From: Verrucomicrobiaceae bacterium
GTDB lineage: Bacteria > Pseudomonadota > Gammaproteobacteria > Pseudomonadales > CAMLJR01
Assembly (NCBI GenBank): GCA_028293825.1
Contig: JAQGNY010000010.1
Location: forward strand, 384,008 to 448,007
Reading direction: 5' to 3'
Length of the DNA: 64,000 nucleotides
Below the pieces are notes generated by a model. That model saw only the letters and a program-made list of their open reading frames with translations, was not told where the DNA came from and did no database searches. Every line of letters starts with the position of its first letter. Within the stretch, counting starts at the first letter, position 1. Below are positions 2,125 to 6,552 of the stretch, piece after piece. Position numbers and translations under genes: made by a program.

Positions 2125-2476
2125 AATTGAGAGCGATTCGATTCATGTCGCCATTGTGGAGAGGCTGCCGGCGTTCCGGTTCAAATCTTTGAGTGCTTTT
2201 GAGCGACGGTGTGTAGCCGCTTCACCTTACAAATCGGCTAAAAAGCGTATAGGTGACAGAAAAATCAGAATTGTGCGCGCACTGGCCAACATTACTTCTG
2301 CCTGAGCTAATATTCGGACATTAATTATTTCTCGCGATACTTAGATTGGCCGTACGTGCAAATAGAAGGGTAGAGGTATGCCTATAGCATGGCTGGAGCC
2401 GACGAAGAATAACAAATACGCTGCTATTCTCGATAACTAGCGCGGCTGATCGGTCAGTTTTATTAAGGGATATTCT

Positions 2477-3307
2477 ATGGAAAGCCATGAATTTGGTGGA
2501 GGTTGGACGGAACTAAAGCTCGATCTGTTAGAGAAATATTTGAAGGCCTACGGCATAGCGCTTAAAAATCAGAACTTCAAGCTGATCTATATTGATGCCT
2601 TCGCGGGGACTGGAGAAAGCCGCACTAAGGGCGAAAACGGGCATGATATGGAAGGGTCTGCACTCAGAGCTTTAAATTCGGAAGGCTTCTCTTCGTTTAT
2701 TTTTATCGAAGAAAACAAAAAGCGGTTTGCTAAGTTAAAAGCGCTTTGCGCAAGACCCGAACATTTGGAAAAAGATATCCATCTCTTTGCTGGGGACGCC
2801 AATCATATTCTGCGGGATTTTCTGAAAACCTTTGATTCAAGAGCGTGGCGCGCGGTGGTTTTTTTAGATCCCTACGGATTGAGTGTTAACTGGGAAACCC
2901 TTGAAGCTATAGCAGCAACTCATGCTATTGATGTTTGGTACCTATTTTCGATCAGTGGATTAGCGCGCAATGCTGCGAATAGGTGGGTGGCTGTAGACTC
3001 TGGAAAAGAAGCTGCAATTGATCGTGCACTTGGAACTCCAGAGTGGAGATCAGCCTTCTACAGTGATACAGGCCAAGGTAATTTGTTCGATTCTGACCCA
3101 CATGTCATAAGACACGCAGACATTGACGATTTAGAGCTCTATGTCAGAGCGCGTTTGAAAGTTCTTTTTCCCGAAGTCCTTTTACCAGTGAGACTACCGA
3201 AACGTGGAAGCCCGCTATACAGCTTGTTCTTTGCAATTGCCAACAAGTCACCTGCAGCAATTGGGTTAGCGAAGAACATAGCTGGCCATATTATTGACCA
3301 CGCTTAG
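2477..3307 (+). CDS. tcmP: three-Cys-motif partner protein TcmP (TIGR04474-like)
   Basis: 276 aa. Motifs are 'WTELKLDLLEKYLKAY', 'LIYIDAFAGTGES' and 'AVVFLDPYGLSVNW'. An AAGGGA box lies 7 nt upstream of the ATG. It lies next to a DUF5131 three-Cys gene, which is the defining context of the family. Assignment is from memory of the family pattern. Confidence 0.7.
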   Translation: MESHEFGGGWTELKLDLLEKYLKAYGIALKNQNFKLIYIDAFAGTGESRTKGENGHDMEGSALRALNSEGFSSFIFIEENKKRFAKLKALCARPEHLEKDIHLFAGDANHILRDFLKTFDSRAWRAVVFLDPYGLSVNWETLEAIAATHAIDVWYLFSISGLARNAANRWVAVDSGKEAAIDRALGTPEWRSAFYSDTGQGNLFDSDPHVIRHADIDDLELYVRARLKVLFPEVLLPVRLPKRGSPLYSLFFAIANKSPAAIGLAKNIAGHIIDHA

Positions 3308-3701
3308 CTATATCATCAGAGTTGGTATCAATGGCCTAGAGTTCTATGTCCGGCCTGATATATCACGACCAACCTTTGTTTTGCTGTGCGGTACGCAGTC
3401 ATGGATCGAGCTTTTTCATCGTTTGAGAAAGAAGCCTGCGCCTTGTCTGGATATCGCTTCCATTCCCTCGAAAAGTCCACAAACTGGGCGCAAGCTTAGT
3501 GTTGCGTGGCTTGTCGCGGATGAGGGCATAGCTGAACTTCGATAACCCGCCACGTGCCTAATAGAATTGATCATTGCAGGACAACGCAGGACTATCCAAG
3601 CAGAAGTAGGGCAGTCAATTATTGGCGGTGCAATTTAACAGTGGCGCTATAGGTTTTCTTGGAGCACGTTGGCTCATATAATGCTGTATGTATAACCAGC
3701 T

Positions 3702-4460
3702 ATGGATGATTTTGTGGCTACTAAAAGCAAGATTGAGTGGACTGAGCAAACTTGGAATCCAGTTACGGGCTGCACCAAAGTATCTCCGGGCTGCAAGAAC
3801 TGCTATGCGGAAGGCATGGCTCATCGGCTGCAAGCCATGGGCACGCCCGGTTATGAGAAGGGTTTTGATAAAATCACGCTTCTTCCTGAGCGGCTGAATC
3901 AGCCAGTTAAGCGCAAGCAGCCTACGTTATATTTTGTCAACTCAATGAGCGACCTCTTTCACGAGAGAGTGCCAGACTCTTTTATTGATGAGATATTTCT
4001 CGTCATTGCAGATACACCGCATCATTCGTATCAGATATTGACTAAGCGCGCCGAACGCATGCACGCATATTTCATGAATCGGTCGGTTCCGGATAACGCC
4101 TGGCTTGGAGTTTCTGTCGAAGATAAAAATTACGGCAAGCCACGCATACCCTACCTGCAGGACATTAAGGCGAAAACCCGATTTTTATCGATAGAGCCAC
4201 TATTAGAGGATGTTGGTCGAATTAGACTAAAGGGAATCCACTGGGTAATCGTTGGTGGGGAGTCAGGACCTCGTGCGCGACCCATGGATGAACGCTGGGC
4301 TATTAAGCTACGCGACCAATGTACTGCTGCTGGAGTGGACTTCTTTTTCAAGCAGTGGGGCGCATGGGGAGCTGATGGCATAAAGCGATCGAAGCGCGTT
4401 AACGGGCGTGTTCTAGATGGCAAGACTTGGGATGAAATCCCGATGATCAATCTCGCATAA
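3702..4460 (+). CDS. phage Gp37/Gp68 family protein (DUF5131, PF07505), three-Cys motif
   Basis: 252 aa. It has the hallmark N-terminus '[29 protein letters not shown]' (C-x6-C-x2-C). Later boxes are '[11 protein letters not shown]', 'ILTKR', 'FLSIEPLLE' and '[14 protein letters not shown]'. Confidence 0.85.
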   Translation: [252 protein letters not shown]

Positions 4461-4474
4461 CCAGGTGATCATAA

Positions 4475-5782
4475 ATGAGCAAGGACGAAGAGAAGTATAC
4501 TTGGAACTGGCCTTCACAAATATTTCCAATTATCGACCCGCACAGCAAAATCAAGCATCAAATTATAGATGACTACCTGCAGGCCTATGTCCACGTCTTA
4601 ATGCGCAATGCGATGATCCCGCGCATGCGACTATCAATCATTGACGGCTTTTGCGGTGGCGGTCGTTATCGTGATGAAGATGGTTCCATTCACTATGGAT
4701 CTCCCATTATCGCTCTAAAATCCGTAAAGGAAGCAGTTTTTAAGCTGAATATTGGAAGACAATCTCCCAGAGAATTTACAACACAGAACTTCTTTGTTGA
4801 CATTAATAAAAACAATGCTGATTGTTTGAATTCGGTTTTAAAAGAACTTGATGAGGGGCACCGAATCGGTACAGATATTCACATTCACTGTGAAGACTTC
4901 TCGACAATATTGCCGCGCATACTTCCTAAAGTAAGAGCATTTGGTGATAGAGCTATTTTTCTCCTTGATCAGTACGCATATGGCGATGTGCCATTTGATG
5001 ACATTCAAACGATATTTAGGACAGTTAAAAATGCTGAGGTTTTGCTGACATTTAACATCGATGCGCTCATAACTTATTTGTCGGACAAACCCAGGAATAG
5101 GAAGGCGATAGCTAATATCGGTCTCGAAAGGCATATACCATGGGAAGATCTTAAATCTATTAAGGTTTCACATAAGCATGAATGGCAATATTTGATCCAG
5201 CGGTATTTGTCGAAAGGAATACTGGAAGAAAGCGGCGCCGAATTCATGACAATATTTTTTGTGACTCCCCTAGGTAAAAACTCAAGAACTTATTGGTTTA
5301 TTCATCTTGCAAACAGTTATCGCGCAAACGAGGTTATGAAATCGATACATTGGCAGTATGGGAATAATTTTTCCCATTCTTTATCCCCGTCACTTTTCGT
5401 TGGGTACGATGCCAATCGAGATATCAATGTTACTGACCAGCATGACCTTTCTCTAGGTGAAGAGCATCATTTTGACGGCGTTACGAGCCAGCGAATTCAA
5501 GCGGAGCTTTCTGAAATATTGCCAAGAGCAATTTATGAAACGGAAGAACAAACGTTTGAACACCTCATGCGAGGAATTGCCAATTTTACGATGGCCAATG
5601 AAGAGATAGTGAAGGGCTCACTTGAGGCTGTGATTGCAAGCGGTGATGTAGAAGTAAAGGATAAGACCGGCAAAACAATCCGTCGCAAAAGCTCTAGTAT
5701 TATCGGTTCCGACAGAATCGTAGCTTCCCCACAGAGGCCGCTGTTTTTTCTGCCAAGAACATTCAAAATCAAAAAGGACTGA
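4475..5782 (+). CDS. TcmP-like protein with long C-terminal extension
   Basis: 435 aa, starting 14 nt after the DUF5131 stop. The N-terminal ~230 aa repeat the TcmP pattern ('HSKIKHQIIDDYLQAY', 'LSIIDGFCGGGRY', 'AIFLLDQYAYGDVPF', 'EVLLTFNIDALITYL'). The last ~200 aa have no motif I recognise. Confidence 0.6.
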   Translation: MSKDEEKYTWNWPSQIFPIIDPHSKIKHQIIDDYLQAYVHVLMRNAMIPRMRLSIIDGFCGGGRYRDEDGSIHYGSPIIALKSVKEAVFKLNIGRQSPREFTTQNFFVDINKNNADCLNSVLKELDEGHRIGTDIHIHCEDFSTILPRILPKVRAFGDRAIFLLDQYAYGDVPFDDIQTIFRTVKNAEVLLTFNIDALITYLSDKPRNRKAIANIGLERHIPWEDLKSIKVSHKHEWQYLIQRYLSKGILEESGAEFMTIFFVTPLGKNSRTYWFIHLANSYRANEVMKSIHWQYGNNFSHSLSPSLFVGYDANRDINVTDQHDLSLGEEHHFDGVTSQRIQAELSEILPRAIYETEEQTFEHLMRGIANFTMANEEIVKGSLEAVIASGDVEVKDKTGKTIRRKSSSIIGSDRIVASPQRPLFFLPRTFKIKKD

Positions 5783-5928
5783 GGACTAAATAAAAATTTC
5801 AAGGCTAATGGAACCAAGGTTGGTATTGAATTGAACCGGCGAATCCACGAATCATTAACCACTGCCCTATACATAGTAGCTCTGCGCACTTCCGTCACTG
5901 TCATGGGTGGTATATTTTGGAGTGCACG

Positions 5929-6516
5929 ATGACGCTCTTTGATTTCTATGTAAGCTTGCGAAAGCACTTGTTGGATCAAATATCAGGTGTGGAGAACGCT
6001 AACACCAATTTGTACTGGGACGACACAACACCAAACTCCACGACCAAACGCCAGTTAGTGGCATTGCTCGATAAATACACCCTCCTTTCAAATAAGTTCG
6101 GTGTGTTTGTAGTTACTAGATACTCTCGGTGCGCAATCGAGTGGCATGTTAATTTTCCGACTGAAAACCGTTACGGTATATCTATAGATTATAAAGATCC
6201 GAGATTCGTCTGGAACGGCGATCAGTTGTTTCAAGGTGAAAGGTTATCAATTTGTCCCTGCTCTACAGATAACAAACTTTGCAGCAACCAAGTCATTGAC
6301 GATTTAATTTACGACACAGAATCAAACCATCTTGAATGCGAAAGAATTTTTCTAATTCTTCAAGATATCGCCAGCAGTATAGTTAAATCCGATAGTAATA
6401 TGCGTCGCTCAGGTATACGTGAGCATTTATTAAGAGCGGTTCTGCGAATTAATGACTCATTGTTACCGCAACCCATTGAAGAGTATATTTCGGAGGTTCA
6501 GAGAAAAAACAAATAG
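5929..6516 (+). CDS. hypothetical protein (last gene of the TcmP cassette)
   Basis: AT-rich ORF on the same strand. GGAG lies 6 nt upstream of the ATG at 5929 (the ORF track starts at 5917). It has several Cys ('SICPCSTDNKLCSNQ...LECERIF') but no family is recognised. Confidence 0.4.
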   Translation: MTLFDFYVSLRKHLLDQISGVENANTNLYWDDTTPNSTTKRQLVALLDKYTLLSNKFGVFVVTRYSRCAIEWHVNFPTENRYGISIDYKDPRFVWNGDQLFQGERLSICPCSTDNKLCSNQVIDDLIYDTESNHLECERIFLILQDIASSIVKSDSNMRRSGIREHLLRAVLRINDSLLPQPIEEYISEVQRKNK

Positions 6517-6552
6517 CTACCGCACGCTACAATGCATGCTCATGCCGAGCTT

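Follow-up and report, generated by a model that had tools for sequence, protein, structure and literature searches.

Three-Cys proteins of the DUF5131 family (PF07505, also annotated as 'phage Gp37/Gp68') recur next to TcmP proteins (NCBIfam TIGR04474), and PADLOC lists such pairs among its candidate anti-phage systems as PDC-M30 and PDC-M41, where 'PDC' stands for phage defence candidate, i.e., predicted and not validated. PDC-M30 is commonly predicted in Pseudomonas aeruginosa, and in one study of 32 strains carrying it 68.8% resisted phage, a purely correlative figure (PMC10855318). DUF5131 itself is curated by SFLD/RadicalSAM.org as a subgroup of the radical S-adenosylmethionine (SAM) enzymes, in Megacluster-5-2, with spore photoproduct lyase placed in Megacluster-5-3 (PMC9477430). 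A module of this type is found in a 64,000 nt stretch of contig JAQGNY010000010.1 (assembly GCA_028293825.1, positions 384,008 to 448,007, forward strand), which is the whole of the DNA analysed and is referred to below as the window. Its genes, open reading frames (ORFs) 1 to 3 (Table 1), belong to the listed candidates PDC-M30 (ORF2 and ORF3) and PDC-M41 (ORF1) and do not represent a new kind of system. The window holds a real, largely intact member of a catalogued candidate system, to which it adds one instance and a pseudogene relic.

New here are the fold predicted for TcmP, the pairing of DUF5131 with TcmP in 80/80 related loci, the second TcmP paralogs in 44/80, the carriers of the module, and the relic, which explains why two TcmP genes bracket one DUF5131 gene in the window. 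An earlier note on this DNA, made from the sequence by itself, had stated that no function was known for either family. No functional study of either was indeed found in the literature, but the family context, i.e., the PADLOC models PDC-M30 and PDC-M41, had been overlooked.

The gene array and its DUF5131 relic

ORF2 is matched by PF07505 over the full length of the profile (positions 1–243 of 243; 369.3 bits against a gathering threshold of 28.9, E = 1.2e-110); the public annotation starts the gene at about 3714, giving 248 aa. Three of its cysteines (C24, C31 and C34, spaced C-x6-C-x2-C) are invariant, and it carries the sequences SIEPLLE and VIVGGESGP. Among the PADLOC models it matches both PDC-M30B (2.3e-109) and PDC-M41B (3.7e-106). 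ORF1 and ORF3 both exceed the curated cutoff of TIGR04474 (53 bits), scoring 193.8 bits (4.9e-57) and 229.9 bits (4.9e-68), respectively, and match PDC-M41A (ORF1, 3.2e-77) and PDC-M30A (ORF3, 3.6e-26). The two proteins share 25% identity over 177 aa (E = 1e-6), in an alignment that spans the three motifs picked out in the earlier note as common to both. The coordinates given there for four same-strand ORFs agree with the ORF listing of the window, the DUF5131 hallmark that it recognised in ORF2 is borne out, and hmmsearch with TIGR04474 and PF07505 matched all three proteins as it had predicted.

PDC-M30 calls for matched and adjacent A and B components, and these are ORF3 and ORF2, separated by 14 nt. 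For PDC-M41, ORF1 matches the A component and its own B component is the relic; ORF2, which also matches PDC-M41B, lies 394 nt away. The adjacency of TIGR04474 proteins to a PF07505 protein is seen on both sides, ORF3 following ORF2 directly and ORF1 abutting the relic. With both hidden Markov models (HMMs) matched, and with the adjacency and the C-x6-C-x2-C spacing present, the locus is of the same kind as other TcmP–three-Cys pairs and is a member with two TcmP paralogs. Compared with the PADLOC candidates, the same proteins stand adjacent as these two-gene systems demand, but the window has both candidates side by side, with the B gene of PDC-M41 as a relic, resulting in a three-gene array.

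The relic lies in the 394 nt spacer between ORF1 and ORF2. It retains the pattern FF.K...SK..GR...GRT, which belongs to the last ~50 residues of DUF5131, and holds the only DUF5131 HMM domain (3326–3451) besides ORF2 in the six-frame translation of the window. Among 8,514 six-frame pieces outside ORF2 it scored best (13.2 bits, E = 0.023), the runner-up reaching 6.1 bits. It ends just past the ORF1 stop codon, reproducing the convergent layout of ORF1's nearest homologs, and was presumably once ORF1's own DUF5131 partner. A convergent relic in this position indicates that two pairs meet in the cassette, a PDC-M41 pair that has decayed and a PDC-M30 pair that is intact. The earlier note had described two TcmP genes bracketing a single Cys protein; the 14 nt gap stands, but judging from the relic the bracketing is a juxtaposition and not a designed three-gene unit. 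The orphaned ORF1 may now rely on ORF2. The best explanation of the stretch as a whole is a decayed, integrase-less islet that contains two copies of one mobile two-gene module and an unrelated orphan gene (ORF4).

Table 1. Features of the module and of its surroundings, in window coordinates
Feature	Position	Strand	Evidence or remark
tRNA-Pro(GGG)	1364–1440	+	ARAGORN; Rfam RF00005, 65 bits; left landmark, outside the system
ORF1, short TcmP, 276 aa, predicted RlmJ-like SAM methyltransferase-type core only	2477–3307	+	PADLOC PDC-M41A
DUF5131 pseudogene relic, C-terminal ~50 codons, two in-frame stops	3314–3469	−	tblastn to DUF5131 C-termini
ORF2, DUF5131 / 'phage Gp37/Gp68' three-Cys protein	3702–4460	+	PADLOC PDC-M30B/M41B
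ORF3, long TcmP, 435 aa	4475–5782	+	PADLOC PDC-M30A
ORF4, orphan accessory gene, 195–199 aa	5929–6516 (start 5917 TTG or 5929 ATG)	+	phrog_19944, 3e-68
Amidohydrolase-2 internal fragment	6553–6789 (homology about 6649–6780)	−	right edge of AT-rich islet

Predicted folds of TcmP and DUF5131

From 35 homologs, AlphaFold2 gives a model of ORF3 (predicted local distance difference test (pLDDT) 82, predicted template modelling score (pTM) 0.83) that has the Rossmann-like fold of class I SAM methyltransferases, with 140 Foldseek matches in the PDB at E ≤ 1e-3. The top match is E. coli RlmJ (1.4e-8), the 23S rRNA m6A2030 methyltransferase (DUF519), followed by Trm1 and the DUF519 protein LPL1258; TYW4 is also among the RNA methyltransferases that match TcmP structurally. 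RlmJ and ORF3 share an N-terminal helix with the motif H-x-x-x-K-H (HADVLKH in RlmJ, HSKIKH in ORF3), a motif I of the form D-x-x-x-G-x-G-R-Y (LDTHAGAGRY and IDGFCGGGRY), a G-S-P motif (GSPLIA and GSPIIA) and an Asp at the motif IV position (LILIDPPYE and IFLLDQYAY). The residues invariant among the 35 ORF3 homologs are H23, S24, K27, D57, G58, F59, G61–63, G75, P77, D165 and Y169. Corresponding motifs are visible by eye in ORF1 (YIDAFAGTG, FIFIEE and FLDPYG), and the sequences of both proteins show an acidic residue where strand 2 ends (FVD108 in ORF3, FIE in ORF1). TcmP thus has the glycine-rich motif I and the strand-2 acidic residue by which membership of the class I SAM methyltransferases is judged. 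In an hhalign comparison of TcmP with RlmJ, motifs I and IV also line up, though the statistics are weak (E = 0.042, probability 1.2%). The earlier note had guessed at a Rossmann methyltransferase from the motifs, and both the model and the motif assignments agree with it: by Foldseek, hhalign and side-by-side reading, IDxFxGxG is motif I and D-[PQ]-Y occupies the position of motif IV.

ORF3 differs from RlmJ in its helical insert, its C-terminal winged helix and its motif IV, which is D-Q-Y or D-P-Y in TcmP. Residues ~1–300 form the RlmJ-like methyltransferase-type core of the model and residues ~335–417 (nt 5477–5725) the winged helix, less conserved than any other folded part of the protein; PF22560 (GMT-like winged helix-turn-helix, wHTH) matches relatives of ORF3 at about 1e-7 and ORF3 itself at 0.061. 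The genes differ as well: RlmJ is encoded by a stand-alone housekeeping gene, TcmP by a mobile one that has a radical SAM gene as its partner. Single-protein and profile searches for sequence relatives of ORF1, ORF2 and ORF3 in the PDB gave nothing meaningful, and a viral fold library returned only generic methyltransferases. On the evidence of the model, TcmP is RlmJ-like in fold and active-site layout yet lies outside the RlmJ family at the sequence level, and this predicted assignment to the RlmJ-like class I SAM methyltransferases is new.

ORF2 matches TIGR04471 (rSAM mobile pair A) at 99 bits (2.7e-28), under the 355-bit cutoff of that model. Judged for the partial TIM-barrel fold of solved radical SAM enzymes, its AlphaFold2 model has its best Foldseek TM-scores (0.51–0.54, probability 0.98–0.99) with spore photoproduct lyase, at E-values of only 0.02–0.05. 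It has in common with spore photoproduct lyase and radical SAM enzymes the megacluster given by SFLD and a three-Cys cluster near the N-terminus, but it is shorter (about 250 aa) and has a different Cys spacing. The placement of the DUF5131 model nearest to spore photoproduct lyase is also new, and is weakly indicated by the fold search. Radical SAM membership of ORF2 derives mainly from the SFLD curation and the sub-threshold NCBIfam match. The earlier suggestion that the Cys triad could bind an Fe–S cluster is in line with the treatment of DUF5131 as a radical SAM (Fe–S) subgroup (PMC9477430).

Related loci, carriers and genomic setting

A genome scan with the ORF3 family gave at least 549 loci, and the best 80 were kept for locus counts. 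DUF5131 adjoins the long TcmP gene in every one of the 80, and in 65 of them DUF5131 is followed by TcmP on one strand, as in the window. A second TcmP paralog is present in 44/80 loci (34/60 when only non-redundant loci are counted). Three classes of TcmP paralog occur, and representatives of each pass TIGR04474. Genuine three-gene operons exist outside the window, the order short TcmP–DUF5131–long TcmP being found in L038, L046, L054, L055 and L057. Of the conserved order of three to four genes looked for in the earlier note, the pairing is found in all 80 loci, the three-gene order of the window in these five, and ORF4 in none.

The median identity to the window proteins is 65% for DUF5131 versus 41% for TcmP, and DUF5131 is the more similar of the two in 68/78 loci. 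ORF2 is nearest to versions from Cellvibrionaceae (72–74%), whose TcmP proteins are only 35% identical to ORF3, while ORF3 is nearest to Pseudomonas versions, indicating that the partners have been shuffled. Under the explanation preferred below, a conserved DUF5131, a diverging TcmP, shuffling, a variable wHTH and second paralogs would together make up the signature of a conflict system. In 16/80 loci, L020, L024, L032, L046 and L054 among them, the co-directional genes begin with a LexA-like S24 repressor (1.2e-27 to TIGR00498, under the cutoff), which suggests DNA-damage control of the module in Betaproteobacteria. No nuclease domain was found in ORF1–ORF4 by Pfam, NCBIfam or PADLOC models, or in the core genes conserved among the 80 loci.

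In Pseudomonas, the pair is found directly after tnpS in Tn3 transposons of the Tn4651 type ('<tnpT tnpS>'), including those of IncP-2 megaplasmids. It is immediately downstream of tnpS in L081 (8235–11317) and in L092 (1310–5574; P. aeruginosa pJB37). A 323-aa integrase and a KfrA-like gene beside the Pseudomonas modules were rejected as components, because they fit the TnpS/TnpT resolvase arrangement described for transposons of the Tn4651 type, in which toxin–antitoxin modules have been found in the same slot, between tnpS and tnpA (PMC7157771). Other copies stand beside TnsA/TnsB/TniB/TniQ-type genes of Tn7-like elements, and one is carried by a conjugative P. aeruginosa plasmid, with transfer genes of the integrative and conjugative element (ICE) type adjacent and DUF6094 and DEAD helicase genes before it; in all, the module was found on 67 plasmids, P. 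aeruginosa megaplasmids included. In L093 (269–8335, P. aeruginosa plasmid NZ_CP124633), which likewise has ICE-type transfer genes adjacent, the order is DUF6094, DEAD/DEAH helicase, a 397-aa TcmP, a gap of ~1 kb and a long TcmP. The gap, where DUF5131 would be expected, has no listed gene, and the arrangement may represent a larger conserved unit.

Convergent pairs of the ORF1 type are found beside genes for HsdM, RadC and SRAP (SOS response-associated peptidase), within a Mu-like prophage, and in the genomes of two Synechococcus phages. In L087 (7831–9309) and L088 (6440–7918), SRAP is directly upstream of DUF5131 on the same strand, and both loci also carry HsdM and RadC. Among the recurrent neighbours of the module are a Type ISP restriction–modification (R-M) enzyme, Hachiman HamB, PDC-S28 and a Type III methyltransferase. 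When 116 neighbour proteins were scanned separately with PADLOC, the mad2, GajB and CapP models were matched too. In S. meliloti, TcmP is close to Hna according to a published table (PMC12445080).

Phage genomes carry DUF5131 on its own (180 of 50,697 records), amid replication and recombination modules; the long TcmP turned up in a single phage record and the short one in two. The phage DUF5131 proteins are 325–358 aa in length versus about 247 aa in bacteria (L084, L085, L086, L095 and L096), and their neighbours are RecET, RusA, SSB, DNA methyltransferase and replication-initiator genes. Their additional residues may stand in for the missing TcmP partner. A pure prophage leftover, which the earlier note had also disfavoured, was rejected on account of the near absence of TcmP from phage genomes. 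The TcmP-paired form is mostly found outside phages, on mobile elements and beside defence genes, so that the near confinement of homologs to intact prophages, which that note had named as a refutation, does not apply to it.

The islet in which the array lies has a GC content of 0.38–0.48 over about 2200–6600, compared with 0.50–0.59 on either flank, and the 2-kb bin 4001–6000 (0.435) is the lowest of the whole window. Its left limit, 2290, was placed ~0.9 kb past tRNA-Pro in the earlier note and is about 0.85 kb from the end of tRNA-Pro(GGG). The cut-off amidohydrolase reported at 6553 corresponds to residues ~218–261 of PtmU3 (E = 2.8e-7, phmmer against the PDB), and the GC content climbs at about 6600, near this fragment. 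The genes upstream of the tRNA (window 1–1440) are pheT, ihfA and a MerR gene. The interval between the tRNA and the islet (1441–2290) has a normal GC content and one feature, a minus-strand ORF of 125 aa (1747–2124) that is not an annotated gene and is without homolog in the PDB or among plasmids. The amidohydrolase-2 remnant is without its N- and C-terminal parts and overlaps the 3′ end of an enoyl-CoA hydratase ORF (6743–7456, minus strand), indicating that the right flank has also been rearranged.

No integrase ORF was found, nor any att-type direct repeat, such as a copy of the tRNA 3′ end at the far border would be. A metagenome scan with the flanking enoyl-CoA hydratase returned only distant relatives (≤43% identity), so that there is no empty site to compare. 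The tRNA hot-spot island proposed earlier can thus not be shown. A scan for promoters and terminators gave sites no more numerous than by chance.

ORF4, which the earlier note had counted as a member of the cassette, is 54% identical to an accessory-region ORF of the Pf inovirus PfAC05 and belongs to a small family (104 representative clusters). In PfAC05 (L091, 4001–4603), the phrog_19944 gene is situated in the accessory region, downstream of the repressor. None of the 80 related loci carries ORF4, which places it outside the system and rules it out as a fourth component. The public label of the metagenome-assembled genome (MAG) is 'Verrucomicrobiaceae bacterium', but the 90%-identity cluster of its IhfA includes Pseudomonadota MAGs and marine sequences, and the relatives of the cassette are likewise from Pseudomonadota, for the most part from Gamma- and Betaproteobacteria; either the label or the binning of the contig is probably wrong.

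Proposed activity and alternative explanations

In general terms, the module would carry out covalent modification of nucleic acid by SAM and radical SAM chemistry, an explanation to which we give about an even chance. The target would probably be DNA, and the purpose probably defence or counter-defence; the phage DUF5131 genes within replication and recombination modules count in favour of an action on DNA. In the mechanism proposed, TcmP would bind nucleic acid (DNA being the most likely), its sequence preference set by the winged helix, and would flip out a base and either methylate its exocyclic amine with SAM or hold it in place. DUF5131 would cleave a second SAM at an Fe–S ([4Fe–4S]) cluster carried on C24, C31 and C34, and the resulting 5′-deoxyadenosyl radical would then elaborate or alter the site presented by TcmP. 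The nucleic acid would be left with a covalent mark or a lesion, which mobile elements would use in conflicts, either to label or protect their own DNA or to disable invading DNA.

Mobile modification systems that depend on SAM, have defence genes as neighbours and recognise DNA variably are familiar from R-M, Dnd/Ssp, the Dpd 7-deazaguanine system and Mom of phage Mu. The TcmP/DUF5131 module is likewise mobile, predicted to be SAM-dependent, found beside defence genes and equipped with a variable recognition part. It differs from them in that the module of the window is without a nuclease or restriction partner and no homology to their components was detected, and its chemistry, if the explanation is true, would be new.

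Several observations weigh against nucleic acid modification of this kind. TcmP has no match to the RlmJ Pfam model (PF04378/DUF519) even at E ≤ 10, the hhalign probability for the two is low, the closest structural relatives of TcmP methylate RNA and not DNA, and a degenerate motif IV, with D-Q-Y or D-P-Y for DPPY, could mean that methyl transfer has been lost. On the side of ORF2, the fold-search E-values are weak, the model has a pLDDT of 76 overall and of about 58–60 at the Cys loop, which is poorly modelled, and the C-x6-C-x2-C spacing departs from the canonical radical SAM motif C-x3-C-x2-C, although non-canonical Cys spacings occur in the radical SAM superfamily. Among the genes conserved across the 80 loci there is no recognisable effector, nuclease or other, no functional study of the DUF5131 or TcmP families was found in the literature, and the LexA-like repressor of 16–17 loci and the SRAP neighbours would fit a role in DNA damage as well.

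True anti-phage immunity is possible but, in our view, doubtful. TcmP would sense or mark nucleic acid and DUF5131 would be the effector, acting by radical damage to invader DNA or by a viperin-like synthesis of an antiviral nucleotide. There is overlap with the modification explanation, the difference being that host defence would be what is selected. It would account for the strong matches to the PDC-M30 and PDC-M41 models, for the Type ISP R-M, Hachiman HamB, Type III methyltransferase and PDC-S28 neighbours with the GajB and CapP model matches, and for the diversification of one partner while the other is conserved, and it is consistent with the correlation between PDC-M30 and phage resistance among the 32 P. 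aeruginosa strains (PMC10855318). However, no validation was found in the literature, the core is without a known effector domain, and phages themselves hold DUF5131 (180 records) and sometimes the full pair. Carriage by prophages, an ICE-like plasmid and transposons fits counter-defence or self-protection equally well.

A further alternative, which we regard as unlikely, is an SOS-induced system of DNA-damage repair or tolerance, in which DUF5131 would reverse lesions in the manner of spore photoproduct lyase and TcmP would read them by base flipping. That the nearest fold to DUF5131 is a DNA repair enzyme, that a LexA-like S24 repressor leads the co-directional genes of 16 loci, that SRAP adjoins DUF5131 in L087 and L088, and that the phage copies lie amid recombination and repair genes would all agree with this. 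Yet a patchy mobile distribution, the presence in one locus of several fast-diverging TcmP paralogs and shuffled partners are unusual for repair enzymes, the full set of SAM-binding motifs in TcmP would be needless for a mere lesion reader, and the window has no LexA-like gene. Least likely is an RNA-modifying pair acting on rRNA or tRNA and altering translation, to give antibiotic tolerance like that of Cfr or to adjust translation to the needs of the mobile element: TcmP is matched best in structure by RNA methyltransferases (RlmJ, Trm1 and TYW4) and the module is cargo on P. aeruginosa resistance transposons and megaplasmids, but the winged helix, the defence neighbours, the LexA-type control and the replication-module context in phages point to DNA, and invariant rRNA targets would leave the diversification of TcmP and its wHTH, and the multiple paralogs, unexplained.

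Within the modification explanation, a more specific and more tentative proposal is that the module represents a new biochemical class of mobile DNA modification or immunity, in which sequence-reading TcmP proteins, often two paralogs, with their RlmJ-like core and variable winged helix, would direct a conserved radical SAM enzyme akin to spore photoproduct lyase to specific sites on DNA, leaving a hypermodified base of a kind not known before or radical damage. If true, radical damage to unmarked invader DNA would amount to a restriction-like system without a nuclease. The families concerned are widespread and the pair is flagged by PADLOC as a matter of routine: clustering at 90% identity leaves more than 8,000 clusters for DUF5131, about 1,750 clusters are related to ORF1, and long TcmP gives at least 549 species-level genome matches. 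For experiments, which the predicted folds and invariant residues can make specific, the window offers a compact, intact ORF2–ORF3 operon together with a naturally 'orphaned' short TcmP. A radical SAM enzyme working on DNA with a base-flipping, methyltransferase-like partner would, if the proposal is true, be a new chemistry of mobile-element conflict.

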